NCBI GenBank assembly: GCA_038318895.1 | Contig: JBBQCS010000001.1 | Span: forward strand, 9,495-73,494 | DNA: 64,000 nucleotides | From: Alphaproteobacteria bacterium | Lineage (GTDB): Bacteria; Pseudomonadota; Alphaproteobacteria; UBA11222 | Reading direction: 5' to 3' | Shown here: piece by piece, positions 1,587 to 37,560 of the stretch | Layout: the number at the start of each line of letters is the position of its first letter | Numbering within the stretch: the stretch's first letter is position 1 | Program-made: the position numbers and the translations under genes | The notes under the pieces: model-generated | Databases searched by the model: none | Told to the model about the DNA's origin: nothing | The model's input: only the letters and a program-made list of their open reading frames with translations

Positions 1587-1994
1587 ATGTCCAAACAGCC
1601 CAAATTCTCACCGGCTCCAACGCCGGAAACCCAGCATTACTGGGATGGAACCAAGCGCGGCGAATTGCTGATCCAGCAATGCGATGCCTGCGCCAGCTAT
1701 TATTTTCCGCCCCGCCCGTTCTGCCCCAAATGCGCATCACGCAAAGTCAGCGTGAAAAAGTCCAGCGGCAAGGCCTTCCTGTATAGCTATGTCATCAGCC
1801 ATCAGTTGCGCGCCGGTCAGGAGCCGTTCGCCATCGCGGTCGTCGAGTTGGAAGAAGGCCCGCGTATGATGACCAATATCATCGGCTGTCCCCAGACGCC
1901 TGAGGCGCTGCAGCTGGATATGGCCCTCGAAGTAACATTCGAAGAATGGGACGAGAACATCACGCTCCCCAAATTCAAACCTGCCAAATCATAA
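1587..1994 (+). CDS. Zn-ribbon/OB-fold protein (DUF35), partner of an SCP2-type thiolase
   Basis: 135 aa with CxxC..CxxC (CDACASYYFPPRPFCPKC) followed by an OB-fold region. It lies 15 nt upstream of the thiolase-like gene, which is the usual arrangement for DUF35 proteins. Confidence 0.7.
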   Translation: MSKQPKFSPAPTPETQHYWDGTKRGELLIQQCDACASYYFPPRPFCPKCASRKVSVKKSSGKAFLYSYVISHQLRAGQEPFAIAVVELEEGPRMMTNIIGCPQTPEALQLDMALEVTFEEWDENITLPKFKPAKS

Positions 1995-2009
1995 GAGGGA
2001 GCAAATAAT

Positions 2010-3155
2010 ATGAAAAGCAAATCAATCGCCATTGTCGGCGCGGCGGAAACCACCAAGCTGGGTGTTATTCCGGATATGTCGGAAATCATGCTGCATGCGG
2101 ATGCAGCCCTGAACGCCCTGGCGGATGCCGGGCTGAAACCATCGGACATTGATGGGGTCGCAACGGCGGGCCTGTGGCCGACCGATCTTGCGTATTATCT
2201 GGGCATTACACCCACCTGGGCCGATGGCACTTTGGTGGGGGGGTGTTCGTTCATGCTGCATGTGCGCCATGCGGCGGCGGCCATCAATGAAGGGCTGTGC
2301 AATACAGTGCTGATCACCCATGGCGAAAGCGGCCGTTCGCGTATAGGCGCTGCGGGTTTTCCCGGTGGCGGGCGTCAATCCTTGCTGGCGCAGTTTGAGC
2401 AACCCTATGGAATCATGGGGCCGACCACGATGTTCACCATTCCCGCATTGCGGTATCTGAAAAAATACAATGTGCATCTGGACAAGCTGGCCAATGTCGC
2501 CGTGGTTCAACGCGAATGGGCGGCGAAAAATCCGCGTGCGACCAATCGCGAACTGATCACGCTGAAAGATGTGTATGAGTCGCGGATGATCGCCTGGCCG
2601 TTCACCAAGCTGATGTGCTGTCTGGTGACCGACGGCGGCGGGGCGTTGATCCTGACCACGGCGGAGCGCGCCAAAGATATGCCGCAAAAGCCGGTTTATA
2701 TTGTGGGAACCGGCGAAAGCGTCGAAACTCCGCTGGTCAGTCAGATGGAAGATTTCACCACCTCGAAAGCCTTCCGTGTTTCGGGCAAAAAAGCGTTTGA
2801 AGAGGCCGGCATCACCCATGCGGATGTGGATCATCTGATGATCTATGATGCGTTTGCGCATCTGCCGATTTATGGGCTCGAAGATCTGGGCTTTTGCCAA
2901 CGTGGCGAGGGCGGTGATTTTATCTGGGAACGCAATACCGCGCCGGGTGGTAAGCTGCCGGTCAACACCAATGGCGGCGGCCTCAGCTATATGCATTCGG
3001 GCATGTACGGCATGTACGCGTTGCAGGAAAGTGTGCGCCAGGTGCGCGGCACGGCGGCGGCGCAGGTGCCGAATGTCAAACTTTCCATAGCACACGGGGT
3101 TGGCGGCATGTTCGCCGCCAGTGGCACCATCATCATGAGTAATGAGGCTCCGTGA
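2010..3155 (+). CDS. Thiolase-like protein (SCP2/nsLTP-type acetyl-CoA acetyltransferase family)
   Basis: 381 aa with a good RBS (GAGGGAG). The N-terminus is thiolase-like (KSIAIVGAAETTKLG) and the C-terminus is Gly-rich (NTNGGGLS..HGVGG). It is paired with the DUF35 gene. Confidence 0.75.
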   Translation: MKSKSIAIVGAAETTKLGVIPDMSEIMLHADAALNALADAGLKPSDIDGVATAGLWPTDLAYYLGITPTWADGTLVGGCSFMLHVRHAAAAINEGLCNTVLITHGESGRSRIGAAGFPGGGRQSLLAQFEQPYGIMGPTTMFTIPALRYLKKYNVHLDKLANVAVVQREWAAKNPRATNRELITLKDVYESRMIAWPFTKLMCCLVTDGGGALILTTAERAKDMPQKPVYIVGTGESVETPLVSQMEDFTTSKAFRVSGKKAFEEAGITHADVDHLMIYDAFAHLPIYGLEDLGFCQRGEGGDFIWERNTAPGGKLPVNTNGGGLSYMHSGMYGMYALQESVRQVRGTAAAQVPNVKLSIAHGVGGMFAASGTIIMSNEAP

Positions 3156-4075
3156 CAGAAGAACAGCCGCCGCCGCAGGAAATAAGTTTCACAAGCGGCG
3201 GCGAGGTTTGCCGCGGCTGGCATTTCCTGCCGCAGAGCGACGCCATGACGAAATATAAGCGCGCTCCGTGCGTTGTCCTGGGGCATGGCTTTGGCGGCAC
3301 CCGCGATGCGGGCCTGGTTCCCTATGCGCGGCGCTTCGCGGCGGAAGGGTTTCATGTCGTAATCTTCGACTACCGGCACTTCGGGGTCAGCGATGGCGAG
3401 CCGCGGCAATTGATTTCGATAGAAAAACAGTTGCAGGACTGGGCGGCTGCAGCGGCGTTTGCCCGCGATATGCAAGGCGTAGACCCTTCGCGCGTGGCGA
3501 TATGGGGATCGTCATTTTCTGGCGGTCATGTTATCGAGACCGCCTTTTTGGATCGCCGGGTGGCGGCGGTGATTGCGCAATGTCCGGCCCTGGACGGGGT
3601 TTCACTCCTTAAAGCCTATTTGCGGTATGCCGGTATTATCTCGGGAATCAGACTTCTGTGCGCCGGCATTCGCGACAGAGTCCGGGGGCTACTAAGGTGG
3701 AAGCCAATAACGCTCCCGGTCATTGGGCAGCCGGGAAGTTTGGCTTTTCTTTCAAGTCCGGATTCTGAACCAGGATACTGGGCTATTGCGCCCGCCGGTT
3801 GGCGTAATGAGATACTGGCGCGTATTGCGCTGGAATTTCCATTCTACCGGCCGATCCGGCATATATACGAGCTCACCTGTCCTCAGTTGCAACAGCATTG
3901 CCTGCGCGATGTTATTGCCCCGCCGCCGCGCCTTGATCTAAGCAGGCAGCCGCGCGGACGCAAAACTATTGTCGTTAAAACCTATGATTGCGGACATTTC
4001 GATCTGTATCAGGGCGAATGGTTCGAAAAATCCCTGGCCGACCAGATCGCGTTTCTGAAAACCGTATTCTCCTGA
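3152..4075 (+). CDS. Alpha/beta hydrolase
   Basis: The GTG start overlaps the thiolase stop by 4 nt. It has the nucleophile elbow GSSFSGGH and an HGFGG oxyanion region. Confidence 0.65.
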   Translation: MTEEQPPPQEISFTSGGEVCRGWHFLPQSDAMTKYKRAPCVVLGHGFGGTRDAGLVPYARRFAAEGFHVVIFDYRHFGVSDGEPRQLISIEKQLQDWAAAAAFARDMQGVDPSRVAIWGSSFSGGHVIETAFLDRRVAAVIAQCPALDGVSLLKAYLRYAGIISGIRLLCAGIRDRVRGLLRWKPITLPVIGQPGSLAFLSSPDSEPGYWAIAPAGWRNEILARIALEFPFYRPIRHIYELTCPQLQQHCLRDVIAPPPRLDLSRQPRGRKTIVVKTYDCGHFDLYQGEWFEKSLADQIAFLKTVFS

Positions 4076-4325
4076 AATTATAGTTCCCGAAATATCTGGT
4101 TTTTGATCTGGATCAAATATTGCCGCCGCCAGCCGCGCTACCGTCCGGTCTCGAATTTGGCAGACGAAGGACGGGTGATATGATCAGTGGTGAGTTGTTG
4201 TTTTCAATATTGGCGATCGCAGGGGTTTCAATATACTGCGCAGTCATGCTGTGGCTGACATTTACATATCATGACAAGCAAAAATTACTGCCGCATGATT
4301 GAAGAAGTGCGGGCTGTTCGCGCGG

Positions 4326-4721
4326 CTATTTCTTTTCGACGGTTTCAACCGGGTAGCCCGCAGTTTTCCATTCACCAAAACCGCCGCGCATATGCGCTAC
4401 GGGGCGAAGCCCCATGTCGTGCGCCGCGCGTCCGGCCAGCGCCGACCGTAAACCCCCAGCGCAGAAGATGATGAATTTCTTGCCCGACTGAAACCGTTCC
4501 TTGGCGTAGGGGCTGTCGGGGTCTATCCAGAATTCCAGCATGCCGCGTGGCACATGCCAGGCGCCCGGGATTGCGCCGTCACGCCACAATTCGCGTACGT
4601 CGCGAATGTCGACCAGTTCTACATTCGGATCGTCCTTGGCTTTCATCACTTCGGCCACGGTCATTGTTTCGATGACCTCTTCGGCTTCTGCGCAGAGCTG
4701 TTTGACACCTTTTGTGACCAT
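4326..4721 (-). CDS. Rhodanese-domain sulfurtransferase
   Basis: The C-terminal half has the rhodanese active-site loop (IIFCAGGLRSALAG). The start is uncertain: the ORF extends to 4769, and internal ATGs at 4721 and 4664 are both plausible. Confidence 0.55.
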   Translation of the reverse strand: MVTKGVKQLCAEAEEVIETMTVAEVMKAKDDPNVELVDIRDVRELWRDGAIPGAWHVPRGMLEFWIDPDSPYAKERFQSGKKFIIFCAGGLRSALAGRAAHDMGLRPVAHMRGGFGEWKTAGYPVETVEKK

Positions 4722-4848
4722 GACTGTTAACCCCAGATGACTGAGTGGTAGGTGGGCCATTTTACACATTACGCGGTAGAAATCTATTATTTACGGGATC
4801 TGGATTGATGCATAGGGTGCTGGCGCGGGATCGCACTGGAGAAGTCGA

Positions 4849-5901
4849 ATGAGACAAGTTGCAAAAATTGCCGGGATTAACCTGTTGGTCATAGTAATAA
4901 TATTGCTTATGGGTGAAGGGATCGCGCGCTATTCGGTTCGCTACAATCCATCTTATTATACCAGCGTCAACGCTACCGATGCGGTAATTGAGTATCCCTA
5001 TGGGATTATCAAGCGCAATTCGCAGGGGCACCCCGACGACGAGTTCGATCTAGCTGATCCGCGGCCGCGTATCGCCTATGTTGGCGATTCGGTCACCATG
5101 GGTGTCGGCGCCGGGCACGGCTATCGATTTTCCGACATTCTGGAACAACGTTTTCCACAATATCAGCACATGACGCTGGCAAGCATCGGAGACAGTTTCG
5201 ACAGTAAGAAATATATGGACGGGCGTGTGGCCGTCGCGAAAGAGCTGGGTACGTCCCAATTTATTTATTTTTATAATTTGAACGACACCTTGCCAACAGT
5301 TACCGCAGGCGCTGGCGACCCGGCAATGGTGCGAGGGTCACCATTGGCGCGGACCATCAATTTTGTAAAAATGCGGACCGAGTTTCTCCGTAACAAAAGC
5401 TATTTGTTTAATTGGGTGCGGTTCAAGGGGCGTAATGCGCTCGCCCGATTTGGCGTTGGATATCGCGGCGAGCCAAGTTATGAATTATTTCCAGAGCAGA
5501 ACGCCGCTGTGTTGGATGACGTGGCGGAGCGAATAAACTATCTTGCCGCGAAGCTGGAAAAGGAAGGTATCGCCTTTACACTGGTGCTGTTGCCCTACGA
5601 GATGCAAATTTCAAAGGACGCGGCGGATACATACTCCAGGCTTGGCATAAAATGGGACGACGGGTTTATCGCTGGCAACACCCAGGACGAAATCAGGGCG
5701 CGGCTGGATCCGGGTATTATCGTGTTCGATGCGCGCGACGCTTTCGTCCAGGCCCCGCAAGATCGTTTGAATATCAAAACCGGCCAATATTTTGTCTATA
5801 ACAAGGGCGATTCGCTGGATTGGAACCATCCAAACCGGGAAGGACACGCGCTGATCGCCAATTTTCTGCAGCGCGAGGAGCTGTTTCGCCAACTGCAATG
5901 A
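4849..5901 (+). CDS. SGNH/GDSL-type hydrolase with an N-terminal membrane anchor
   Basis: RBS GGAGAAG; TM helix INLLVIVIILLMG; GDSx block YVGDSVTMG; C-terminal catalytic D..H block (DSLDWNHPNREGHALIA). The gene is clearly lower in GC than its neighbours. Confidence 0.6.
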   Translation: MRQVAKIAGINLLVIVIILLMGEGIARYSVRYNPSYYTSVNATDAVIEYPYGIIKRNSQGHPDDEFDLADPRPRIAYVGDSVTMGVGAGHGYRFSDILEQRFPQYQHMTLASIGDSFDSKKYMDGRVAVAKELGTSQFIYFYNLNDTLPTVTAGAGDPAMVRGSPLARTINFVKMRTEFLRNKSYLFNWVRFKGRNALARFGVGYRGEPSYELFPEQNAAVLDDVAERINYLAAKLEKEGIAFTLVLLPYEMQISKDAADTYSRLGIKWDDGFIAGNTQDEIRARLDPGIIVFDARDAFVQAPQDRLNIKTGQYFVYNKGDSLDWNHPNREGHALIANFLQREELFRQLQ

Positions 5902-25851: not shown

Positions 25852-26856
25852 TCAGCGCGGAGACGAAATGCGCACCCCCGCCGCCAGCCGTTCTCGCAGC
25901 ACTTCACGGCGAAAGCGGAACAAAGCGGCGGGACGGCCCCGTTGTTGCGGCTGAATTTCACCGGTGTTTTCGACGATACGGCTGTTCTCGACCAACCGGC
26001 GGAAATTCTGTTTATGCAGCGGCGTACCCAGAATCGCTTCCACCGTGCGCTGTAATTGGAACAGGCTGAATGTTTCCGGCATCAGGTCAAACACCACCGG
26101 CCGGTATTTCAGTTTCGCGCGCAATCGCCCCATGGCGGTCGCCAGTATGCGGCGGTGGTCCGACATCATCGGATTTCCCAGTGGCGGAGGGGGCTGTAAT
26201 CGTTGCACGCCTTCACCTTCGCGCCGCGCCTCGGCGACGAGCCCGGCGCCGTAGAGCAGCTGGTAGCGCTCCAGCACGATCTCCTCGTCCCAGCTTGCGC
26301 CGTCCAGCGCAAAGCAGATATTCGCGCGGTCCTGGCGCACGCGTTGTTCGGATTTCGCCGGCCCGGCCTGTATCCAGGCATGCAGCAGCGGCGCGATCAC
26401 TTTGTCGATAAAGACCGGGCGCCCGTTGCGCCAGTCTTCCCAGGGAAAATAGTCGTACCAGGAACGCCAGGCCGCATTCTCCGGGGGCGTCATATCCGCC
26501 TCATGGGTTAACGCCAGATAACCAACGGAAATCACTCTTGGGCCACCTTCGCGTTCACGCGGGTGGCGTCCGCTGTCGCCAAAAGTATACAGCTGTTCAA
26601 CATAGCCCAGGGTGACACCGATGCGCCCGGTAACGGTTTCGCGCAGTCCAATATCCAGTGTGCGATGGCGGGCGGCGTCAAATGGCCCCGACGGCAACGC
26701 GTCGCCCGCCACATCAAAGCCGCGCGCAATGCTGCGCGCCTCCGCCTCGTCAAGGGCTGGACCATGGCGCACCAGCACGAGCGGCCTGCCATCGGTAACC
26801 GCGACGATTACCGCTCCCAGATCGATGATCATGTCGGTATGTTTGGGAGCCTCCAT
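25852..26856 (-). CDS. nrtR: Nudix-related transcriptional regulator of NAD metabolism (NrtR: Nudix domain + C-terminal winged helix)
   Basis: 334 aa with a Nudix-like N-terminal half and a C-terminal wHTH region (FSLFQLQRTVEAILGTPLHKQNFRRLVE). It sits immediately upstream of nadABC, the classic NrtR context. Confidence 0.6.
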   Translation of the reverse strand: MEAPKHTDMIIDLGAVIVAVTDGRPLVLVRHGPALDEAEARSIARGFDVAGDALPSGPFDAARHRTLDIGLRETVTGRIGVTLGYVEQLYTFGDSGRHPREREGGPRVISVGYLALTHEADMTPPENAAWRSWYDYFPWEDWRNGRPVFIDKVIAPLLHAWIQAGPAKSEQRVRQDRANICFALDGASWDEEIVLERYQLLYGAGLVAEARREGEGVQRLQPPPPLGNPMMSDHRRILATAMGRLRAKLKYRPVVFDLMPETFSLFQLQRTVEAILGTPLHKQNFRRLVENSRIVENTGEIQPQQRGRPAALFRFRREVLRERLAAGVRISSPR

Positions 26857-26870
26857 GCCTGGACTTTGAT

Positions 26871-27377
26871 TTACAGCTTTGCGGGCATGGAAAACAATGT
26901 GCCTTCCATGTCGAACTCGCCAGGCCCCATTTCGTTGACCGCTTCGATCATCCGGCCCTTGCGTCCCATCAGTTTGTCTGCAACGGCCACCAGGCGGCGA
27001 TTGGGCTGGGCGTGGCGCGCGGCGGTGCGCATTATCTGTGCGGCGCTACGTTCGTGGCCTTCGTTCAGATGGCACAGGGCGATATAGGCGGTGGCGGTCG
27101 AACGGCTGATCCCTGCCCAGCAGTGGATCAGCATCGGCGCGCTTTGATCCCAGCTGTCGATGAAACCGAGGATATCCCTGATGTGCTCGTCACCGGGTAT
27201 GACCAGTCCTTCGCGTGGCTCAGCGATGTCGTTCACCGATAGCCGCAAATGCCGCTCACGGTGCACTAAAGGCGGCGTGTCTATCATTGATGCAGGGTCG
27301 AGCAAGGATACAAGATGTGACGGCGCCAACCGTTCAATCGAAGCATGCACCTGGCTAAGCGGACAAACATATATCAT
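26871..27377 (-). CDS. Dual-specificity protein phosphatase (tyrosine phosphatase family)
   Basis: CX5R P-loop HCWAGISRST. The ATG at 27377 has the SD GAGGAA 7 nt upstream; the ORF track extends to 27443. Confidence 0.6.
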   Translation of the reverse strand: MIYVCPLSQVHASIERLAPSHLVSLLDPASMIDTPPLVHRERHLRLSVNDIAEPREGLVIPGDEHIRDILGFIDSWDQSAPMLIHCWAGISRSTATAYIALCHLNEGHERSAAQIMRTAARHAQPNRRLVAVADKLMGRKGRMIEAVNEMGPGEFDMEGTLFSMPAKL

Positions 27378-27448
27378 TGTGAATTCCTCAATTTGACCGG
27401 CCAACACTTGCCTATAGATAAATCTGCCATAGTGCCAGCACACATACC

Positions 27449-28060
27449 TTATTTTGGAGCCAATATGCGAAAGCGTTCCAGAAAGGCGCGCTTGGCCCGG
27501 CTAGGGGAAAGCTGATGAATTTCGGGACAGACAAGATTGCGCGGCCGGTCAAAAATCCGTCCGGCTTCGGCGACGTCAAACCCGGCTACCGAGATAGCCT
27601 CGAAATAGGCGCTGGCGCGGTCGGCGCGCTTGATCGTTCGCGCAATTTCATCGGGCAGCAGCGCAGGCAATCCAAATCGCAGCCGTATAGCGCTGTCCAG
27701 CCGCTGTTCCAGCGCCTTATAATTGGTCCCGACCGCCGCCTTGAAGGGGCTGATCAAATCTCCCACCACATATTCCGCCGCATCATGAAGTAACGCCGCC
27801 AGCCGCCAGCGTTGTTCGGCGCGCGGTTGTATACAGTCATATAAAGCCAGAACCAAAAGCGAATGTTGCGCGACGCTGAACGGCCACGGGCCATTTGTCT
27901 GACCGTTCCAGCGCGCAACACGCGACAGGCCGTGGGCGATATCTTCTATTTCAATATCCAGAGGAGAGGGATCCAGCAGATCCAGCCGCCGCCCGCTCAG
28001 CATTCGTTGCCAGGCCCGTCCCTGCTTATCTTTATCCTGTTTTTGTGTTTTCACGTACAT
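27449..28060 (-). CDS. HD-domain phosphohydrolase (YfbR-like)
   Basis: H..HD..D metal motif (HSLLVLAL..LLHDAAEYVVGD). The true start may be the ATG at 28003 (MLSGRRLDLLDP..). Confidence 0.55.
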   Translation of the reverse strand: MYVKTQKQDKDKQGRAWQRMLSGRRLDLLDPSPLDIEIEDIAHGLSRVARWNGQTNGPWPFSVAQHSLLVLALYDCIQPRAEQRWRLAALLHDAAEYVVGDLISPFKAAVGTNYKALEQRLDSAIRLRFGLPALLPDEIARTIKRADRASAYFEAISVAGFDVAEAGRIFDRPRNLVCPEIHQLSPSRAKRAFLERFRILAPK

Positions 28061-28231
28061 ATCACCAGTATTACTTAGAGTTGTATAGATTATATACTTA
28101 AATAGAAAAATTATACCACACGTTTAACAAATGTGGCGAAATTAAGTCAAAAAAATTCCTGTATTCGCGTAAATATGAACATTGAATTCTGAAAGGTCGT
28201 CCATATTTATTGTGTAGCAGAGGACGAGACC
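28061..28231. promoter_or_regulatory. AT-rich intergenic/promoter region upstream of the PAS-like gene
   Basis: About 170 bp at roughly 30% GC inside a roughly 60% GC genome. There is no coding potential; TATA-like runs are present. Confidence 0.3.
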
Positions 28232-28834
28232 ATGGATAGAAACAATATCATACTAACAATCTTCGAATATTGGCGATCCAAGCTCAAGGGCCGCCGACTA
28301 CCCTCCCGGTCGGATATTGTGCCGGGCGAGTTACGCGAGTTGTTGCCCTTCTTGTTTATTGCGAAGGTGAATACGATAACCCCTGCAGGGCGTGAGATCA
28401 ATTTACGGCTTGTCGGGACCCATATCGAGCGAGCCCTGGGGTTCGATCTTACAGGCTTTCCTGTTGGCGGCGTGGCTAGACACTGGCAGGATTTTACTGT
28501 TGGGCGCGATTTTTTCGATGCAGCAAGCCAGCGCAGCGCGATTATTGCCACGCATGAGTTGCGGGGCACTATAACCCCTGAAAAATTTCTGCCCCAGCAA
28601 ACCGGCGCCGCCTTTTTGCGCTACCATAGGGTGGTGCTGCCTTTGTCGTGCGATGGGTTTCGCGTGGACCGCCTTTTAGGCGCATTGGTTGCGGAGGTGC
28701 GCGAGAATGTCTGGGCAATGTGGCAGGCGCCCTTTGCATTTGAAGTAAAGGCCAAAAAGCTGCTGACATCCCCTTTCACCTGGCCGGCAAATGCGAAATC
28801 TATTGCGTTACCGGCACGCCGGGTTCTTGTTTAG
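28232..28834 (+). CDS. PAS-domain-like protein (small alphaproteobacterial PAS family), function unknown
   Basis: 200 aa, good SD (GAGGA). Lower GC than neighbours; the PAS assignment is tentative. Confidence 0.4.
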   Translation: MDRNNIILTIFEYWRSKLKGRRLPSRSDIVPGELRELLPFLFIAKVNTITPAGREINLRLVGTHIERALGFDLTGFPVGGVARHWQDFTVGRDFFDAASQRSAIIATHELRGTITPEKFLPQQTGAAFLRYHRVVLPLSCDGFRVDRLLGALVAEVRENVWAMWQAPFAFEVKAKKLLTSPFTWPANAKSIALPARRVLV

Positions 28835-29273
28835 CGGTACGTATCGTGAGAGAGGTTTTCACGCTGGCCACATTTGGCGCAGACGTCAGATTTGCGGTTA
28901 AAAAGCGCTGAAATTCTGAAAGGTCATGCGCGACACATTTCAGTATGAAATCGATTTCACCGTTCAGCATGTGACATTCGCGCACAATTGGCCAGGCGGC
29001 CACCATTTGCTCGAATGTTACGAGATCGGCCTCCGCCTGACTGCGCAATGACACCATGGCGAATACCGTGACTTCATATCCCAACGCCCTGGCGTCCAAA
29101 TCCGCATGATAGCCCCGAATGAACCCTGCTTCTTCCAGTGCACGCACCCGGCGCAGGCAGGGCGGCGCGGAAATGCCCACCCGGTGTGCAAGCTCGACAT
29201 TGGTAATGCGGCCATCCGCCTGCATCTCCCGAAGGATCATGCGATCAATTTCGTCCAATTTAACCCGTTGCAT
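28800..29273 (-). CDS. Lrp/AsnC-family transcriptional regulator
   Basis: N-terminal HTH (LDEIDRMILREMQADGRITNVELAHRVGISAPPCLRRVRALEEAGFI) followed by a RAM domain. Confidence 0.85.
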   Translation of the reverse strand: MQRVKLDEIDRMILREMQADGRITNVELAHRVGISAPPCLRRVRALEEAGFIRGYHADLDARALGYEVTVFAMVSLRSQAEADLVTFEQMVAAWPIVRECHMLNGEIDFILKCVAHDLSEFQRFLTANLTSAPNVASVKTSLTIRTAKQEPGVPVTQ

Positions 29274-29353
29274 GGTGATCGAATTCCGAGACTTATGATG
29301 TAAATGATAATATTATTACAAGCGTGAGTAATTATATAACCCAATTAGGGCCA

Positions 29354-30358
29354 ATGAGTAACAATCATAAGCCTTTACGACCGCCCGAGCCTACCTGCTG
29401 GGTTGTTACCGATGGCAATGCGGGGATGGAAAATCAGTGCCTGGGTCTGGCTGAAGCGCTGGGGGTCATCGCACAGGTCAAACGCCTTAGACTGCGTGCC
29501 CCGTGGGAGTGGCTGCCACCGCGGCTGGGCAGGCTGGCAAACCCGCTCGCGGGGCTGGATGCGCGCGGCGATATGCTTAATCCTCCCTGGCCGGATTTAT
29601 TGATCGCCACTGGGCGGCGAACTGTTGCCGTCAGCGCGATGATCAAGCGGCTGAACAGCAGGACCGTGACCGTGCAAATCCAGAACCCGCATTTTCCAGT
29701 GTCAGCCTTTGATCTGGTGGTGACGCCCGCGCATGACCGCCTGAGCGGCGCGAACGTGATCACGACGGCGGGTGCGCTGCACCGGGTTACGCGGGTGCGC
29801 CTGGATATGGCGGCGCAGGAATTTCGCAGCGCTCTGGCGCATCTGCCGCGGCCGTTGATTGCCGTGCTGATTGGCGGCGCCAACAAGGCGTACCGGATGA
29901 ATCCGCAAATCATTGCAAGATTTGCCGATAGCCTGCGTGATCTGGCAGCGGAAACCGGGTGCAGTTTTGCCGTCACGCCGTCACGCCGCACAGGAGATGA
30001 CAATATAGCCGCGTTGCGCAAGGGGCTGGCCGGGACGCCGCATACGCTTTGGGAGGGGGAGGGCGCCAATCCCTATTTCGGCTATCTGGGGTTGGCCGAC
30101 GCGGTGATTGTCACGTCGGACTCGGTCAATATGGTGAGCGAGGCTTGCGCATCCCAAAAACCGGTTTATGTATACAATCTTCCGGGCGGGTCGGCTAAAT
30201 TTAACGCCTTTCATACGGCAATGCGTGAAAGCGGCGCCGTGCGGCCCTTCATTCCGGGGCAGACAACGCGGCTTGAATCATGGACGCCGCCTGCGATTGA
30301 TGATACGGCCACGGTGGCCAGGGCGGTCAAACGCCTGCTTATTATTCGAAACAACTGA
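29354..30358 (+). CDS. ELM1/GtrOC1-family (DUF1022, mitochondrial-fission-ELM1-like) putative GT-B glycosyltransferase
   Basis: CWVVTDGNAGMENQCLGLAEALG is the characteristic N-terminal block of this family as I recall it; about 334 aa. The start is uncertain (GTG at 29324 or ATG at 29354). Confidence 0.55.
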   Translation: MSNNHKPLRPPEPTCWVVTDGNAGMENQCLGLAEALGVIAQVKRLRLRAPWEWLPPRLGRLANPLAGLDARGDMLNPPWPDLLIATGRRTVAVSAMIKRLNSRTVTVQIQNPHFPVSAFDLVVTPAHDRLSGANVITTAGALHRVTRVRLDMAAQEFRSALAHLPRPLIAVLIGGANKAYRMNPQIIARFADSLRDLAAETGCSFAVTPSRRTGDDNIAALRKGLAGTPHTLWEGEGANPYFGYLGLADAVIVTSDSVNMVSEACASQKPVYVYNLPGGSAKFNAFHTAMRESGAVRPFIPGQTTRLESWTPPAIDDTATVARAVKRLLIIRNN

Positions 30359-30368
30359 CGGATACGGC

Positions 30369-30992
30369 ATGCCGGTGCTTGATATAGCGGCTCTGCAGAT
30401 AGCCCCTTTGCAACATGATCCGTTTGATTATGTGCTGGTGCCCGGTTTTGTGAACGCGGCGGCGCTGGCGGATATCAACAGGGATTTTCCGGCGGTTCCC
30501 GGACCCGGCTCGTACCCCCCGGCGCGTCTGGATATTCGCGGGCGGTTTGGCACGTTGCTGGACGAACTGGATGGTGTGGAATTTCAGACGGCCATCGCGG
30601 AGAAATTTGGCGTCGATCTTTCCGGCTATCCCACCATGTTTACCGTGCGCGGGTTTTGCCGCTTGTCCGATGGCAAAATACACAATGACAGCGAAACCAA
30701 AATTATTACCGTACTGCTCTATCTGAACCCGCCATGGGAAGCCGGGGCGGGCCGTCTGCGATTATTGCGCGGCCCGGATGATCTGAACGATATGGCAGCG
30801 GAAGTGCCGCCCGATGGCGGCAGTCTGCTGGTGTTCCGCCGCGCTGCAAATAGCTGGCACGGGCATGAACCCTATGAAGGGCAGCGCCGCGCCATCCAGA
30901 TGAACTGGGTGCGTGATGCGGGTGTTGTTCGGCGCGAACAGTTGCGGCACCGTATATCGGCGGCGGCCAAACGCCTCGTTCCATTTGTGTGA
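30369..30992 (+). CDS. 2OG-Fe(II) oxygenase (prolyl-4-hydroxylase-like)
   Basis: HxD..H facial triad in the P4Hc-like arrangement (HNDSETKIITVLLYLNPPWEAGAGRLRLL ... SWHGH). The ATG at 30369 lies 10 nt after the upstream stop. Confidence 0.65.
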   Translation: MPVLDIAALQIAPLQHDPFDYVLVPGFVNAAALADINRDFPAVPGPGSYPPARLDIRGRFGTLLDELDGVEFQTAIAEKFGVDLSGYPTMFTVRGFCRLSDGKIHNDSETKIITVLLYLNPPWEAGAGRLRLLRGPDDLNDMAAEVPPDGGSLLVFRRAANSWHGHEPYEGQRRAIQMNWVRDAGVVRREQLRHRISAAAKRLVPFV

Positions 30993-30998
30993 GTGCAG

Positions 30999-32972
30999 AT
31001 GGCGCTGAACCTTGAAACTTTCTCTAACGCCGATATGAAAAGCGGCTGGCGGCCTGGCAATAATGCGGGCGGCCACTCGCTGTTCAAGGCGCTGGGTCAT
31101 CCGATGGCGGCGCGCCGCGGGCGGGCATTGTTTGACGCATGCCTGCAAAATGGCCCTATCGCGATTTACGATCCGCGCGGGGTCGCGGCGGCGTTCGATG
31201 CGCTGTTCGGAATTTCGCGTTGTGAGATTGAAAATATTTATGTGCAGCGTGTAGAAGATCAGGATACGGATATTTTAGGGAAATCCGCCAGATTGCTGAC
31301 GGAATTGCCGCAATCGAAGGCCAGGACACTGCTGGTCCTGTCGTTTGATGCGGCGCGCCTCACGGGACACTTGCAACCGTTGCTGCCGGCCGGCATGACT
31401 GTACGTTCACTGGACGAGATGCGCATTGACGCAGAGATGTTGACCAACACCGGCAATTATACTGACCCGCTGAATTTCGCGACGAATTTTGCGTTGTTCC
31501 GGGATGTGGCGGGCAGGGATGCACAGGGCGGGCTGCACACCACCATTACGACCGCAAATTACTGGGGCATGCAGGGGGCGGAAAACCCCGGACTGTGGCT
31601 ATGCCTGTTCGATGCGAATGGAAATGTGCTGGCGGAGTGGCATGAGCCGTTGCCGCAGGCAGGCGCGTTGATCCGAATTGACAGCCGTGAGGTGCGCGCG
31701 CGTTTTGGCCTAGGGGATTTTTGCGGATCGTTGTTCATGCATGCGCTGCGCGTGGTGAAACATGACATCGTCAAATATGCGCTGGATATTCATGGGGAAG
31801 ACGGGGCCGCGCTTTCGTGCAGTCATGACGCCAATGCGTGGCCAGCAGATTTTTATGCGGGGATGCCTGCGGCACAGTCCGATGAGCGCGTGATCCTGCA
31901 TATTCAGAACAGTCACCCGACACCTATCCCTGCAGGCATTATCGGGCTTGGCATTATGGGCGGGCGATCGGTCAACAGACTGGAGATCGAAATCGCGCCG
32001 TTCGCCACTTACGCACTGGACGTGGCGCAGCTATTGCCGCAGGCGCGTTGGCCCGATCAGGTCGAAATTCATGCCGGACGCTATTTCGTCCGTCCACGCT
32101 ATGAAACCGTGCGGGGCGACGGACGCAGGCGGATTGCCCACGCCAACGTCGAACGCACCGATTTGCAGTCTGATCCGCGTATTCCACAGCTGTCCAAAAG
32201 CATGGGCAAGGCCTATCTTATGCCGCTGCCGGTGCCGCCATTGAAAGAGTTTTCCTCGTTGATGCTGCCAACGCCCATGGCGGCCGGTCAGCGGGAATTG
32301 CCCGTGCGGGCGGAACTTTATGATGCGAACGGTGACAAGGTTGCAGAACATTTCATGGGGCGTCTGCAGCGGCGCGACAGTGTTCCACTGAGCATTGACA
32401 GCTGGTTGAGACAATCGGGTGCGACGCTTGCATCCGGGTCCGGGCATATCGAGTTTCTGTATGATTTTCGCGATGGCGGCGAGGCGGATGGCTGGCTGCA
32501 TGCGCTGGGGAAATATACGCTGCGTTCGAGCGGCCATCAGGCGGAAACAATTTTCGGCGCACATATTTATAACGTGCCAGTGATATATAAGGACGAGCCG
32601 CAATCCTACACTGATACCCCGCCGGGGTTGTCGACCCGGCTGTTTCTGCGGCTGGGGCAAAATCTTGGAATAAAAATGGATGCGCTGTGCCATCTGATTT
32701 ATCCGGCGTCACTTCCCTGGCATAAAAAATCCAGTACACAGATCATTCTGCATGATGGCGATGGTCAGGTCGTGGCGCAAAAACAGGTTGCCATTAAGTG
32801 CAGTGGCAGCCTGTTCTGGCGCTATTCGGAAATGTTTGACGCAGGAGATCGCAAGGCGGCGGGTCCAGGCGCCTATGTCATCGTGCGCGACGCCACCTGC
32901 CGTCTGTTTGGCTTTCACGGGCTTATGCATGGAACCACCAGTTTCAGCCTGGATCACATGTTCGGATTTTAG
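30999..32972 (+). CDS. Hypothetical 657-aa cytoplasmic protein with an internal tandem repeat, family unknown
   Basis: The ATG is 6 nt after the oxygenase stop, so translationally coupled. There are no TM helices or signal peptide and no motif I recognise. The repeat blocks LFDANGNVLAEW..IRIDS and LYDANGDKVAEH..LSIDS indicate a roughly 230-aa duplication. Confidence 0.5.
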   Translation: MALNLETFSNADMKSGWRPGNNAGGHSLFKALGHPMAARRGRALFDACLQNGPIAIYDPRGVAAAFDALFGISRCEIENIYVQRVEDQDTDILGKSARLLTELPQSKARTLLVLSFDAARLTGHLQPLLPAGMTVRSLDEMRIDAEMLTNTGNYTDPLNFATNFALFRDVAGRDAQGGLHTTITTANYWGMQGAENPGLWLCLFDANGNVLAEWHEPLPQAGALIRIDSREVRARFGLGDFCGSLFMHALRVVKHDIVKYALDIHGEDGAALSCSHDANAWPADFYAGMPAAQSDERVILHIQNSHPTPIPAGIIGLGIMGGRSVNRLEIEIAPFATYALDVAQLLPQARWPDQVEIHAGRYFVRPRYETVRGDGRRRIAHANVERTDLQSDPRIPQLSKSMGKAYLMPLPVPPLKEFSSLMLPTPMAAGQRELPVRAELYDANGDKVAEHFMGRLQRRDSVPLSIDSWLRQSGATLASGSGHIEFLYDFRDGGEADGWLHALGKYTLRSSGHQAETIFGAHIYNVPVIYKDEPQSYTDTPPGLSTRLFLRLGQNLGIKMDALCHLIYPASLPWHKKSSTQIILHDGDGQVVAQKQVAIKCSGSLFWRYSEMFDAGDRKAAGPGAYVIVRDATCRLFGFHGLMHGTTSFSLDHMFGF

Positions 32973-33131
32973 CTCACGCCGGTTACGCTACTTTGCGCCG
33001 ATATTGCGCCTGTTGATTTTCCGATAGCCTGGTCTTAAGTCCGCCTTTTGCGCCCTGCCCGTGACGGTGAATCCCGATACTCAACAAACCCCGGAACGAG
33101 ATAGGTATGGCATACTAAAATACTCCTGCCG

Positions 33132-33986
33132 TCATTCCTTCTTGCCTGTTTCGCGGTAATCGCCGAAGTCCGCGTCGCGGTTGCTGAGGGCGGTGGTGAG
33201 GCCCTGCTCGCCGATGGATTTGATCCAGGTTTGTGAGGTTTCGGTAAAACTGGCCAGGCCCTGAATTTCGGTGGTGGCGCGAAGCGCGGCGCGAATGCCC
33301 ATAATGTCCATCTGGCGGTGCACGCTGCGCTTGTTGAACTGTTGCAGATCTGGCGGCACCTTGGCTACGCGGGCCGCCATTTCCAGCACCTTGGCCTCCA
33401 GCTGATCCGCAGGGACCGAGGCGTTGGCGAAACCGCATTCGGCGGCCTCGATCCCGGTCATGCTGTCGCCGGTCAGCATCATTTCCATGCCCTTGCGCAT
33501 GCCCATCACCCAGGGGAAGAACTGATTGTCCGGCGGGCTGATGGAACGCACCGGCGGATAGCCGATCTTGGCGTCATCGGCCACATAGATCAGATCGCAG
33601 GACTGCGCCAGTTCCATGCCGCCCGCCAGGCAATAGCCGGTAACCTGGGCGATGACCGGTTTCGCCAGATCCCAGATGTAAAAACAGCCCTCAAGCACGT
33701 GACGCGGCCAGTTGGCGAGGCCGCCTGCGGTGTAATAGGGCTGGCCCTTGGTCACATTGGTTTTCAGGTCATACCCGGCGCTGAACGCTTTTTCATTGCC
33801 GCGAATGATCATCACGCGCACGGAACGGTCCTGATCGGCGCGCGTGAGTGCGTCGAACAGCTCGCCGCGCAGGGCGTTGCTGAGTGCATTGCGCGCCTCG
33901 GGCCGGTTCAGGGTGATGCGGCGGATATGTTCGGTTCCCGGCGGGGTGTCGACGATTACATATTTATAGTCGGGGGTATCGCTCAT
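33132..33986 (-). CDS. Enoyl-CoA hydratase/isomerase (crotonase) family protein
   Basis: Crotonase fold motifs (AFSAGYDL, oxyanion-hole region). SD GGAGG 7 nt upstream of the ATG at 33986. Confidence 0.8.
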   Translation of the reverse strand: MSDTPDYKYVIVDTPPGTEHIRRITLNRPEARNALSNALRGELFDALTRADQDRSVRVMIIRGNEKAFSAGYDLKTNVTKGQPYYTAGGLANWPRHVLEGCFYIWDLAKPVIAQVTGYCLAGGMELAQSCDLIYVADDAKIGYPPVRSISPPDNQFFPWVMGMRKGMEMMLTGDSMTGIEAAECGFANASVPADQLEAKVLEMAARVAKVPPDLQQFNKRSVHRQMDIMGIRAALRATTEIQGLASFTETSQTWIKSIGEQGLTTALSNRDADFGDYRETGKKE

Positions 33987-34051
33987 CTGGTTTCCTCCCA
34001 CGTTTATTTCAGGTTACAATAGAAGCTATTGGCATATTAGAGGAAGCTGAC

Positions 34052-34963
34052 ATGCAAAGCGAAGTGAAACAGGTGCAACTGGTCGAGGTTGGTCCGCGCG
34101 ACGGTCTGCAAAATGACCCTACTTTGCTGGATGTGGACACCCGGATCGAGTTCATCACCCGGCTGGTGGATACAGGGGTGAAACGCATCGAGGCGGTCAG
34201 TTTCGTCAATGACAAACGGGTTCCTGCCATGGCCGGGGCGGAGGCGGTAATGGCGGGCGTGCCGCGCGGGCGCGGCGTCAGCTATATCGGGCTGGCGCTG
34301 AACACGCGCGGGTTTGACCGTGCGGTGCTGGCTGGTGTGGACGAGGTGAACTATGTCGTCTGCGCGTCCGACACCTTCAACCAGCGCAATCAGGGTGCCC
34401 CGCGCGCCGCCACCCTTGCCGCCATGCACGATATTGCCAGCAAAGCCAGGGACGCCGGGCTGCCATGCAGCCTGACGGTCGCCACCGCGTTCGGCTGCCC
34501 GTTCGAAGGCGAAGTGGATGTAGCCGTTGTATCCGAAATCGCGCGCCAGGCGGCGGATGCAGGCATTACCGAACTGGGCCTTGCAGATACTATCGGGGTT
34601 GCAACGCCGTTAAACGTCAAGACTTTGGTGGCCGCCGCCCGCGCCGCCGCGCCGGGCATGGCGTTACGCTGTCATTTTCACAATACCCGTAATACCGGCA
34701 TCGTGAACGCCTATGCGGCGGTGGAGGCAGGGATAAGCGTGCTTGACGCGAGTACCGCCGGCATCGGCGGGTGTCCGTTCGCACCCAAGGCGACCGGCAA
34801 TATCGGCAGCGAAGATCTGCTGTATATGCTGCATCGCATGGGGATTGAAACCGGCATTGATCTGCCCAAACTGATCGAGGTGGCGAAATGGCTGGAAGGG
34901 GCGCTGGGCCACGCAACATTCGCGCAGGTCAGCCGGGCCGGCCTGTTCCCGGCTGCGGCCTAG
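34052..34963 (+). CDS. Hydroxymethylglutaryl-CoA lyase
   Basis: HMGL-like TIM-barrel protein (VEVGPRDGLQN, E..CxxAxGG, HFHNTRNTG). Confidence 0.85.
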   Translation: MQSEVKQVQLVEVGPRDGLQNDPTLLDVDTRIEFITRLVDTGVKRIEAVSFVNDKRVPAMAGAEAVMAGVPRGRGVSYIGLALNTRGFDRAVLAGVDEVNYVVCASDTFNQRNQGAPRAATLAAMHDIASKARDAGLPCSLTVATAFGCPFEGEVDVAVVSEIARQAADAGITELGLADTIGVATPLNVKTLVAAARAAAPGMALRCHFHNTRNTGIVNAYAAVEAGISVLDASTAGIGGCPFAPKATGNIGSEDLLYMLHRMGIETGIDLPKLIEVAKWLEGALGHATFAQVSRAGLFPAAA

Positions 34964-34966
34964 GGC

Positions 34967-35767
34967 ATGACCACACTCACGATTGCCAGCTGGAACATCA
35001 ACTCTGTCCGGCTACGGATTGATACAGTAGCGCGGTTTTTGCAGGAATATCAGCCTGACGTGCTATGCCTGCAGGAGACCAAAGTGGTCAATGATCAGTT
35101 CCCGGATAAGATGTTCCGAAAACTGGGCTATGACTCCATCGCGCTGAACGGGCAAAAAGCGTATCACGGTGTAGCCATTCTATCGCGGGTTCCATTTGAG
35201 GCGATGGATCTACGGGAATTTTGCGATAAGGGCGACGCGCGGCATGTGGCGGTGACGCTGCCGGGAGATATAGAATTACATAATTTCTATGTGCCTGCGG
35301 GCGGCGACGAACCGGACCCGGCGTTAAACGTCAAGTTCGCCCACAAGCTAGCGTTCCTCAGCGAAATGGCGGACTGGTTTGAAGCCTGGCCGCGGCAAAG
35401 TAAGCATCGCATTCTTGTGGGCGATCTGAATGTCGCGCCGCTGGAGCATGACGTTTGGTCGCACAAACAGATGCTGAAAGTGGTCAGCCATACCCCTATT
35501 GAGGTGGACCATCTCGCCCGAGTTCAAGACGCGCATGGCTGGATCGATGTGGCGCGGCAATTTATCCCGCCCGAGGAGAAGCACTACACCTGGTGGAGCT
35601 ATCGCGCCGCCGACTGGCTGGCCAGCAATCGCGGGCGCAGGCTGGATCATATTTGGGTGTCGCCCGGGCTGGCGGATACGCCCAGGGCGTTTACTGTGGC
35701 CCAGGCGGTGCGCGGCTGGCCAAAACCCTCCGACCACGCGCCTATCCTGGCGAGCCTTGAAGTGTAG
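34967..35767 (+). CDS. xthA: Exodeoxyribonuclease III
   Basis: IASWNINSVR..LCLQETK AP-endonuclease N-terminus; C-terminal SDHAP. Confidence 0.9.
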   Translation: MTTLTIASWNINSVRLRIDTVARFLQEYQPDVLCLQETKVVNDQFPDKMFRKLGYDSIALNGQKAYHGVAILSRVPFEAMDLREFCDKGDARHVAVTLPGDIELHNFYVPAGGDEPDPALNVKFAHKLAFLSEMADWFEAWPRQSKHRILVGDLNVAPLEHDVWSHKQMLKVVSHTPIEVDHLARVQDAHGWIDVARQFIPPEEKHYTWWSYRAADWLASNRGRRLDHIWVSPGLADTPRAFTVAQAVRGWPKPSDHAPILASLEV

Positions 35768-35814
35768 CTGGGGCTTTTGGGCCAATTGAGAATAAGCCTT
35801 TTCGGCGAAGCAAA

Positions 35815-36672
35815 TCAGCCCACTGCAATATTATCCAGCAGCCGGGTTTTACCAATACGCGCAGCCACGATCAGGCGGGCCGGGCGGGCGCCGACGTGGG
35901 TGAGCGGCGTCAGATCCTCAGCATCGCACAGTTCCAGATAATCGACGCTGTCAAATCCGCCGCGCAATAATTCGTCGCGGCCCCATGCAAGATGTGCGTC
36001 CGCGTCCGATCCATCGCAAAGCCGCTTCGCCACCGCTTGCAAAGTGCGCGGCAGCGCCAGCGCCTGACTGCGCTGCGCCGGGCTGAGGTAAGCATTACGC
36101 GAAGATAGCGCCAAACTGTCCGCCTCGCGCACCGTGGGCACGCCCACAATGTCAGTTGGAATATCCAGATCGCGCGCCATGCGCGTGATGGTTTTTAGTT
36201 GCTGATAATCTTTCTCGCCGAAAAACGCGGCGTCCGGCAGCACCTGCAACAGAAGTTTGGTGACAACTGTGGTCACGCCCTGAAAGTGTCCGGGCCGGGC
36301 GGCGCCGCACAGGCTCTCGGTCAGGCCCGTAACATTGACAGTCGTCGCGGTTCCAGGCGGATACATGATATCGACGGTGGGCAGATACACCAGATCAGCC
36401 TGCGCCGTTTCAAGTTTTGCGATATCGGCGTTCTCGTCGCGCGGATAGGCGTCAAAGTCTTCATTGGGGCCGAACTGCGTTGGATTGACGAAAATCGAAA
36501 CCACGACTTTGTCGCAACGCTGTTTTGCAGTCCGGACCAGGGTGATATGGCCGTCATGCAGCGCGCCCATGGTCGGCACGAAGCCGATGCGCAACCCCTG
36601 CGAACGCCACGCTCGCACCTGGGCGCGCAGATCAGGTATGGTGCGGACGGCCGCAATAGTCGAAATACCCAT
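35815..36672 (-). CDS. panC: Pantoate--beta-alanine ligase
   Basis: VPTMGALHDGH HIGH-type motif; 285 aa. Confidence 0.9.
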   Translation of the reverse strand: MGISTIAAVRTIPDLRAQVRAWRSQGLRIGFVPTMGALHDGHITLVRTAKQRCDKVVVSIFVNPTQFGPNEDFDAYPRDENADIAKLETAQADLVYLPTVDIMYPPGTATTVNVTGLTESLCGAARPGHFQGVTTVVTKLLLQVLPDAAFFGEKDYQQLKTITRMARDLDIPTDIVGVPTVREADSLALSSRNAYLSPAQRSQALALPRTLQAVAKRLCDGSDADAHLAWGRDELLRGGFDSVDYLELCDAEDLTPLTHVGARPARLIVAARIGKTRLLDNIAVG

Positions 36673-36702
36673 CCGTTACACCAGATTTAATCCGTGAGCT
36701 AA

Positions 36703-37560
36703 TTAACCGGCAATTTGGGTGATGCGGGTTTTGGGCGTCTGCTGTTTCTGCTTGTAGACATTTTTTTGGGCCGGAAACTCACGCGTGCGCACCGCGCTCG
36801 CATACGCGTCAATGGCGCGCTGGGTTTCGCCGGCGACATCTCCGAACACCTGAACGAATTTGGGGACATCCGTGCCGAAAACGCCCGTCATGTCCTCGCT
36901 GACCAGTATCTGGCCGTCGCAGGCCGATGACGCGCCAATGCCGATGGTCGGTATGTCCACGCGCGCCGTAATATTTTTCGCCAGATCTTCAACCATGCCT
37001 TCCAGAACAATGCAGAACGCACCGGCCTCGGCAATGGCGACGCTGTCGTCGAGAATGGCTTGCGCTTCGCGTTCGCCGTGGCCGCGGGAGCGGTAACCGC
37101 CCAGCGTGTTGACCATTTGCGGCCGCAGGCCCGTATGCCCCATCACCGGAATGCCGCGTTGGGTCAGGAAATGCACCGTCTCGGCCATTTCGCGTCCGCC
37201 TTCCAGCTTGATTCCCGCGCATCCGGTTTCCTGCATCACGCGCGCGCAGTTGCGAAAGGCAGTCTCGGGGGATTCCTGTGTAGTGCCAAAGGGCATATCC
37301 ACGATGACGCAGGCGCGTTTTGAGCCGCGCATGACCGCCTGGCCGTGGGCGATCATCATATCGAGCGTAACCCCCAATGTGCTTTCCATACCGTACAGCA
37401 CCATGCCGAGTGAATCGCCGACCAACATCAGATCAACCACTTCATCCATCATTCGCGCCATGGGCGTGGTGTAAGCGGTTAAACAAACAAGCGGCGTGCC
37501 GCCTTTCCGTGAACGGATCGCCGGCGCCGTGATGCGGCAAACGGTATTGGTTTTGCTCAT
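36703..37560 (-). CDS. panB: 3-methyl-2-oxobutanoate hydroxymethyltransferase
   Basis: PanB signature ([20 protein letters not shown]). Confidence 0.9.

Follow-up and report, generated by a model that had tools for sequence, protein, structure and literature searches.

Organization of the locus

The analyzed DNA is a 64,000-nucleotide stretch of an alphaproteobacterial genome of the UBA11222 lineage (assembly GCA_038318895.1, contig JBBQCS010000001.1, positions 9,495 to 73,494; hereafter the window), and it contains a three-gene operon, A-B-C, that is divergent from the gene for an Lrp/AsnC-family regulator. Gene A (29354-30358, plus strand) encodes a 334-aa GT-B protein of the ELM1/GtrOC1 family and is a putative glycosyltransferase with a lipid-linked acceptor. 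Gene B (30369-30992, plus strand) encodes a 207-aa 2-oxoglutarate (2OG)-Fe(II) oxygenase that resembles prolyl 4-hydroxylases (P4H) and PHD enzymes and is an accessory member of the module. Gene C (30999-32972, plus strand) encodes a soluble 657-aa protein of an undescribed family, with a predicted Rossmann-like N-terminal domain and beta-sandwich domains, and is the conserved partner of A. The gene for the 157-aa regulator lies on the minus strand (28800-29273) and is separated from gene A by an AT-rich intergenic region of 80 bp (29274-29353, no strand assigned).

Gene calls were based on a list of open reading frames (ORFs) and on direct reading of the junctions. An earlier note made from the sequence alone had described three coupled plus-strand genes with gaps of 6-10 nt, divergent from an Lrp/AsnC regulator across 80 bp. 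Coordinates and spacing agree with that description, the gaps being 10 nt between A and B and 6 nt between B and C, with ATG start codons at 29354 for gene A and 30999 for gene C. Its estimate of roughly 28% GC for the intergenic region was too low, as direct counting gives 33.75% (27 of 80) and about 22% for the central 50 nt. Gene C had been reported as an uncharacterized protein of 659 aa; it is uncharacterized, but the length corresponds to an alternative GTG at 30993, and a length of 657 aa is adopted here because the homologues begin where ATG 30999 lies, with the consensus 'MxLxIxTFxN'. Computation from the sequences finds no transmembrane or hydrophobic segments in any of the three proteins, and the product of gene A carries a net positive charge. 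The operon has a GC content of 58.4% compared with 57.9% for the window, and this match rules out a recent horizontal island. An Rfam scan of 27500-34200 found no RNA elements, and a promoter and terminator scan gave nothing convincing in the lrp-A intergenic region or 3' of C.

Gene A belongs to the ELM1/GtrOC1 family

Gene A matches the Pfam family Mito_fiss_Elm1 (PF06258) over its full length, covering profile positions 1-303 of 304 with an E value of 8.6e-107 and a score of 357.2 bits (cutoff 27). Close homologues are named 'mitochondrial fission ELM1 family protein', and plasmid-borne paralogues carry the PGAP name 'ELM1/GtrOC1 family putative glycosyltransferase'. The predicted structure is a GT-B fold with two Rossmann domains (Pfam clan CL0113), which together with the Pfam match confirms the ELM1/GtrOC1-like assignment made earlier. 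A literature search on DUF1022 returned nothing useful.

The nearest neighbours of the model in the PDB are MGD1 and MurG, which are GT28 enzymes with lipid acceptors, and not the GT9 heptosyltransferases; MGD1, a galactolipid synthase of plant chloroplasts, ranks first among them. The possibility that A is itself a GT9 heptosyltransferase of the WaaC/WaaF kind, and thus a member of a known lipopolysaccharide (LPS) core family, was rejected on both sequence and model, since PF01075 (Glyco_transf_9) gives no match in A at E values up to 0.01 and the structural neighbours are not heptosyltransferases. True GT9 genes are present as separate ORFs at three loci that carry homologues of the operon (L035, L060 and L069). 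With MurG and plant MGD1 the model of A is similar, but sequence identity is only 13-14% and the Pfam GT28 profiles (Glyco_transf_28 and Glyco_tran_28_C) do not match at E values up to 0.01, and A is therefore regarded as belonging to a family separate from GT28. The likeness of the predicted structure to MGD1 hints that plant mitochondrial ELM1 may descend from a lipid glycosyltransferase.

Gene B encodes a P4H-type 2OG oxygenase

The product of gene B matches PF13640 (2OG-FeII_Oxy_3) with an E value of 2.9e-9 and a score of 38.2 bits (cutoff 27), and its PDB matches are 9blq (3.5e-13) and 9ei6 (9.3e-8). A profile of the B family retrieves the same two structures followed by EGLN1/PHD2 (about 5e-4), the Pseudomonas PPHD 4iw3 and OGFOD1. 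Literature on 9BLQ, 9EI6 and 9EI7 yielded nothing useful, and the two best relatives of B are thus unnamed hydroxylases. Across 27 sequences H105, H164 and R173 are invariant and D107 is nearly so, and H105, D107 and H164 align with the HxD motif and distal histidine of 9blq and 9ei6. To judge from this alignment, the HxD...H iron triad and the basic residue for the 2OG C5 carboxylate are intact, which with the PF13640 match bears out the earlier description of B as a P4H-like oxygenase.

Homology of B to the Kdo (3-deoxy-D-manno-oct-2-ulosonic acid) hydroxylase KdoO was considered and ruled out for want of any sequence similarity. A Pfam scan of B at E values up to 0.01 returned PF13640 and PF13661 alone, without a match to Kdo_hydroxy, and a search of the PDB with the B profile at E values up to 10 returned no chain named KdoO or Kdo hydroxylase. 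PADLOC gave no defence-system match apart from its generic 2OG model for B.

Gene C represents an undescribed protein family

Searches with C, either as a single sequence or as a 30-sequence profile, gave no match in Pfam, NCBIfam or the PDB sequences. More than 3318 homologues are present in a database clustered at 90%, all of them labelled hypothetical. In an exhaustive HMMER search of 1.84 billion cluster representatives the family accounts for just 586 clusters, whose full-length members extend to identities as low as about 33%, and it is therefore compact and self-contained. Counting one genome per GTDB species, at least 594 relatives were confirmed, and identity is about 60% in Parvibaculum and Rhodobiaceae. 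Among the matches listed, the Alphaproteobacteria are represented by Parvibaculales, Rhodospirillales (Azospirillum, Ferrovibrio), Kiloniellales and Pelagibius, and other classes by Methylophilaceae, Sulfuriferula, Thiobacillus, Competibacteraceae and further gammaproteobacterial metagenome-assembled genomes. A tblastn search of plasmids with C found no match.

The model of C has a small Rossmann-like alpha/beta domain at the N-terminus followed by beta-sandwich domains. The N-terminal domain as modelled resembles those of nucleotide-sugar enzymes, and at least one of the beta-sandwich domains may be like the predicted sugar-binding TM1070/ASRT fold, with no match at the sequence level, including to Pfam ASRT. 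Foldseek comparison of the whole of C with the PDB returned only beta-sandwich matches with TM-scores of at most 0.11 (macroglobulins and accessory domains of GH2 enzymes), which at that level are functionally meaningless. Comparison of the three beta regions with hhalign revealed no internal repeats, all probabilities being below 10%.

The family alignment contains 22 invariant residues, nine conserved histidines and several aspartates and glutamates, a pattern more suggestive of an enzyme, perhaps one that depends on a metal, than of a passive scaffold. The loop E533-P-Q-S-Y537...P542-G-L (residues 533-544, window positions about 32595-32630) is invariant among 30 sequences that are 33-86% identical, and residues 535-539 form the sole internal segment modelled with a predicted local distance difference test (pLDDT) score below 50. 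This loop might serve as a mobile catalytic lid or be a site of modification.

Conservation of the A-B-C arrangement

The four proteins of the window were searched by tblastn over the loci that encode C-family members (designated by L numbers), and counts were made on the 74 species-level loci with sufficient upstream DNA. Of these 74 loci, 65 have gene A within 6 kb of C, and in 62 A shares the strand of C and lies upstream of it with less than 1 kb between them; 42 carry B, and 49 carry Lrp, which is apparently confined to the Alphaproteobacteria. The question of whether the three genes are syntenic in related genomes is thereby answered in the affirmative. The order is A-B-C in the Alphaproteobacteria and B-A-C in Methylophilaceae and Sulfuriferula, and since linkage is retained although the order changes, the arrangement points to a functional module. 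It is also far beyond chance, with thousands of homologues of each protein and an order that is conserved over classes.

In the Alphaproteobacteria the genes occupy a conserved slot in which carAB-greA-lrp is followed divergently by the module and then by trxB-lysR. The content of the slot is A-B-C in Parvibaculum, A-C in L004, A-B in Rhodobium and L087, A alone in Sneathiella and L088, C alone and divergent from lrp in Ferrovibrio, and C alone in Azospirillum. For Azospirillum and a Rhodospirillaceae isolate, Pfam scans of the genes preceding C gave no useful information.

Genomic context outside the Alphaproteobacteria

In beta- and gammaproteobacteria the orthologous ELM1-C pairs are found within LPS or lipooligosaccharide (LOS) core loci, a setting that is seen neither for the window nor for the other alphaproteobacterial loci examined. 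The gene for the Kdo transferase directly precedes the pair in L046 (waaA-A-C), precedes C in L045 (waaA-C), and lies 5 kb away in L069, where GT9-B-A is divergent from C. In a Competibacteraceae locus (L035) the order is rpiR-ilvE-A-C-GT4-GT9-waaL, and in a Methylophilaceae locus (L060) grpE is divergent from B-A-C-GT4-GT9-methyltransferase-Glyco_trans_1_2. A conserved GT4 gene is located directly 3' of C in six beta- and gammaproteobacterial loci (L035, L044, L049, L052, L060 and L062). In L093 and L096, where C is only 39-40% identical, genes for an lpxL-type acyltransferase, GT2, waaL, a GDSL lipase and GT4 are divergent from A-C, and in L097 a WecA/MraY-type phosphotransferase gene is followed by A and then C, with an epimerase, GT4 and an AsnB-like gene nearby. 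On pSymB of S. meliloti, a distant ELM1 paralogue is separated by one glycosyltransferase gene from kdsB, encoding CMP-Kdo synthetase, and is surrounded by other glycosyltransferases.

Several other genes occur beside the module at these loci. A small zf-CHCC gene (PF10276) lies between GT4 and the divergent ELM1-C pair in two distant loci, L093 (6626-6835) and L096 (2381-2593), and in both an MnmC-like gene (Methyltransf_30 and DAO domains) is found 3' of C. A class I S-adenosylmethionine methyltransferase (Methyltransf_11/23) recurs downstream of C in two unrelated loci, directly after C in L094 (9987-10736) and after GT4-GT9 in L060 (10245-10997). Upstream of B-A-C in L084 and on the same strand (1934-5002) are two tandem GalT/HIT-type genes, similar to galactose-1-phosphate uridylyltransferase, and a FeoA-domain gene, which may serve to supply nucleotide sugars and to link the 2OG oxygenase to iron.

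The Lrp-like regulator and the intergenic region

The divergent regulator matches PF13412 (HTH_24; 1.2e-20), PF01037 (AsnC_trans_reg; 6.1e-19) and PF13404 (HTH_AsnC-type; 2.4e-17), and these profile matches assign to it an N-terminal AsnC-type winged helix-turn-helix and a C-terminal AsnC_trans_reg (RAM) domain. Its score of 121.7 bits against the NCBIfam equivalog for E. coli Lrp (NF008370) is under the cutoff of 233, and the description that suits it best is that of an alphaproteobacterial Lrp-like protein. The regulator is 59-95% identical in related alphaproteobacterial loci, and relative to Parvibaculales its identity of 73-79% compares with 40-48% for A; the higher conservation fits a general or global regulator in a conserved slot. 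In the clade of the window, lrp and A-B-C are still together though greA and trxB are no longer adjacent.

The AT-rich palindromic box TAATAtTATTA (29308-29318, no strand assigned) forms a conserved block in an alignment of five divergent intergenic regions. With up to two mismatches it is found in 50 of 58 lrp-adjacent intergenic regions, as against 1.9% of 200-bp background windows, usually 27-65 bp from the lrp start codon, and it is also present where C and not A is the divergent gene. As the box tracks lrp even without A, it is most simply a candidate promoter or operator of lrp itself. A simple scan of 29274-29353 for sigma-70-like promoters called none. Control of A-B-C by Lrp is plausible as a hypothesis only, because none of the beta- and gammaproteobacterial module loci examined has Lrp and the alphaproteobacterial arrangement reflects the conserved slot greA-lrp-(A/B/C)-trxB.

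The region also contains a direct repeat of ATTTAACCC (29258-29266) and ATATAACCC (29334-29342), 76 bp apart, with one copy in the start region of the lrp coding sequence and the other just upstream of gene A. The element ATATAACC is likewise conserved in the five-genome intergenic alignment and could represent either another regulatory half-site or the -10 region of A.

Surrounding genes in the window

A PAS_5/MopJ-like gene (28232-28834, plus strand) converges on lrp with an overlap of 35 bp between the 3' ends, and upstream of it is a stretch of 34-37% GC (about 28000-28300). Further upstream on the minus strand, three closely spaced genes with gaps of 5 and 14 nt (25852-28060) encode an HD-domain/YfbR-like phosphohydrolase (27449-28060), a protein with weak similarity to dual-specificity phosphatases (26871-27443) and a 334-aa protein with an NrtR-type winged helix at its C-terminus (25852-26856), and this trio may constitute a nucleotide- or ADP-ribose-responsive operon. 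Downstream of the module (33132-37560), Pfam and NCBIfam scans identified a crotonase-family enoyl-CoA hydratase (minus strand) and an HMG-CoA lyase (plus strand), and inspection by eye added a 266-aa exonuclease-III-like ORF (plus strand) and two panC/panB-like ORFs (minus strand); none of these seems connected with A-B-C.

A probable role in LPS inner-core assembly

Textbook assembly of the LPS inner core proceeds from WaaA to enzymes of the GT9 and GT4 families, and the ELM1/GtrOC1 family joined this picture only in 2024. GtrOC1 and four relatives had been described in two surveys of Acinetobacter OC loci as Mito_fiss_Elm1 proteins and predicted glycosyltransferases with 'no known function in bacteria' (PMC4172580, PMC10327509). 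Deletion of the ELM1-like gene 2903 of A. baumannii was then found to leave a core consisting of Kdo2 only, as does deletion of the GT4 gene lpsB (VanOtterloo et al., mBio 2024, PMC10936431). Neither 2903 nor LpsB alone extends Kdo2-lipid A; the two are mutually dependent, and together they add KdoIII and N-acetylglucosaminuronic acid (GlcNAcA), both in Acinetobacter itself and, when Gna is present as well, in E. coli WBB06 (PMC10936431). The statement in the earlier note that bacterial ELM1 proteins are uncharacterized is therefore outdated, and the ELM1 part of the present locus belongs to a kind known since 2024. The need for an ELM1 protein in the extension of Kdo2-lipid A with a partner transferase has been shown solely for 2903/LpsB of A. 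baumannii. That work places the family directly after WaaA and provides a precedent for dependence on a partner, both of which match the beta- and gammaproteobacterial contexts described above.

Taken together, these observations suggest that A-(B)-C is probably a cytoplasmic module of LPS inner-core assembly in which A is a glycosyltransferase with a lipid-linked acceptor, C is its partner and B is an optional hydroxylase. Acting immediately after WaaA, on the inner side of the inner membrane, the module would use a lipid-linked acceptor that would most likely be Kdo2-lipid A. Protein A would function as a peripheral, basic GT-B glycosyltransferase that moves a sugar from a nucleotide-activated donor. 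Protein C would be a soluble partner whose conserved surface, rich in histidine and aspartate, could have a metal-dependent catalytic or substrate-presenting role; it might carry out a second transfer or modification step, or A might require C as Acinetobacter 2903 requires LpsB. Protein B would decorate the product as an optional Fe(II)/2OG hydroxylase, analogous to KdoO and LpxO but of the P4H type. The earlier note had proposed hydroxylation and glycosylation of a small molecule or protein, with no described function; the presence of waaA, GT4, GT9, waaL and lpxL at LPS core and lipid A loci and the Acinetobacter data supply a functional setting, and the LPS-locus context outside the Alphaproteobacteria together with the action of the Acinetobacter ELM1-like protein on Kdo2-lipid A makes a lipid-linked envelope glycan the likely substrate.

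Several observations weigh against a role in the inner core. The window and all alphaproteobacterial loci examined are without an adjoining LPS gene, their neighbours being lrp, greA and trxB, and three contexts outside this class (L084, L098 and L073) are unrelated to LPS or uninformative. The sequence of B resembles protein prolyl hydroxylases and has no similarity to KdoO. The alphaproteobacterial copies of C are 51-55% identical to those of beta- and gammaproteobacteria, which is unusually conserved for an enzyme of the LPS core. Finally, all combinations of the genes occur in the alphaproteobacterial slot, and A, B and C are therefore not strictly interdependent, at least as neighbours.

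Synthesis of a membrane glycolipid or another lipid-linked glycan, in which A would act on diacylglycerol or an undecaprenyl-PP-sugar and C and B would modify the head group, is unlikely. It would account for the likeness of the A model to MGD1 and MurG and for the WecA-linked locus L097, but the neighbours that recur are waaA, GT9 and waaL, and the sole family member tested works on Kdo2-lipid A. The LPS-locus context and the Acinetobacter data, which point to a glycolipid acceptor, also make a Skp1-like system very improbable, namely one in which B hydroxylates a proline of a cytoplasmic protein, possibly C, and A glycosylates that proline. Such a system would be in keeping with the solubility of all three proteins, with the prolyl hydroxylases EGLN1/PHD2, PPHD 4iw3 and OGFOD1 as the named PDB relatives of B, and with the invariant, proline-containing, low-confidence loop 533-544 of C as a conceivable site of modification. 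However, genomes that have no B show the same invariance of the loop (P0060 in alignment A1), C is found without a nearby A in Ferrovibrio and Azospirillum, and PF13640 enzymes have many non-protein substrates.

The conserved AT-rich box in the shared intergenic region, and the divergent Lrp found in 49 of 74 loci and kept in the clade of the window despite the loss of adjacency to greA and trxB, would agree with a metabolic operon for making or modifying a small molecule of the cytoplasm, for instance a glycoside derived from an amino acid or one of the compatible-solute type, with Lrp as its dedicated regulator. This explanation is nevertheless regarded as highly doubtful. Metabolic enzymes do not co-occur with the module, Lrp is absent from every beta- and gammaproteobacterial locus examined, the box follows lrp at 27-65 bp from its start also without A, as expected for its own promoter or operator, and the much higher conservation of Lrp (73-79%, against 40-48% for A) fits a global regulator in a conserved slot.

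Within the inner-core interpretation, a more specific proposal can be made only tentatively. Gene C might be the first member of an enzyme family not seen before, encoding a metal-dependent transferase or sugar modifier outside the GT-A and GT-B types that forms an obligate pair with ELM1 glycosyltransferases and builds a non-canonical Kdo-proximal inner core. In that case B would be a sugar hydroxylase of the P4H type with an evolutionary origin separate from that of KdoO.

The constant pairing of an ELM1 protein with a Pfam-less family of about 650 aa and a P4H-type oxygenase was not found in any paper of the literature searched. Species in which the ELM1 gene is tied to that of the large, highly conserved C protein, and often to the oxygenase gene as well, number in the hundreds among the Alpha-, Beta- and Gammaproteobacteria, and characterizing C would put a name to a family of more than 3000 sequences. 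The function of C could point to a step, or a class of enzymes, that is new to outer-membrane biogenesis and could account for the dependence of ELM1 proteins on a partner, and work on C could provide a biochemical entry point to the plant mitochondrial ELM1 family.

Comparison with known systems

The Pfam family to which A aligns along its whole length takes its name from plant ELM1, a mitochondrial fission factor. This plant factor recruits a dynamin-related protein and to our knowledge has no known enzymatic role; its setting is mitochondrial fission, whereas the context of bacterial ELM1 proteins is envelope glycan synthesis. The TM1070/ASRT beta-sandwich superfamily, to which a domain of C is likened, was described by De Souza, Iyer and Aravind in 2009 (PMC2739507) and consists of single-domain proteins of about 110 residues, whereas C is a multidomain protein of 657 aa with many conserved histidines and aspartates. 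KdoO is a 2OG dioxygenase that acts after WaaA and before WaaC (PMC8533242), and it sets a precedent for an enzyme of this kind at that stage of core assembly. KdoO and LpxO are, like B, Fe(II)/2OG hydroxylases, and KdoO is encoded with inner-core genes; B differs from them as a P4H/PHD-like member of PF13640 that is absent from about 40% of loci.

The closest parallel is with A1S_2903/GtrOC1 of Acinetobacter, which shares with A the Pfam family PF06258 and a predicted GT-B-like fold and is likened to it by family and fold. Both are found in LPS or LOS core loci beside ilvE or waaA-type genes, in the case of the module at beta- and gammaproteobacterial loci such as L035 (ilvE-A-C-GT4), and the dependence of 2903 on its partner LpsB is paralleled by the tight linkage of A to its partner C. 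The Acinetobacter locus, as listed in PMC10936431, is without C, whereas the module described here has C as an invariant neighbour. In addition, and unlike the 2903/LpsB pair, the module often has a P4H-type oxygenase inserted, and in the Alphaproteobacteria there is no GT4 gene nearby. If C does prove to be a new enzyme family paired with ELM1, the two-protein tandem transfer of Acinetobacter would exemplify a general mechanism, spread over the Proteobacteria, in which an ELM1 protein works with a partner.

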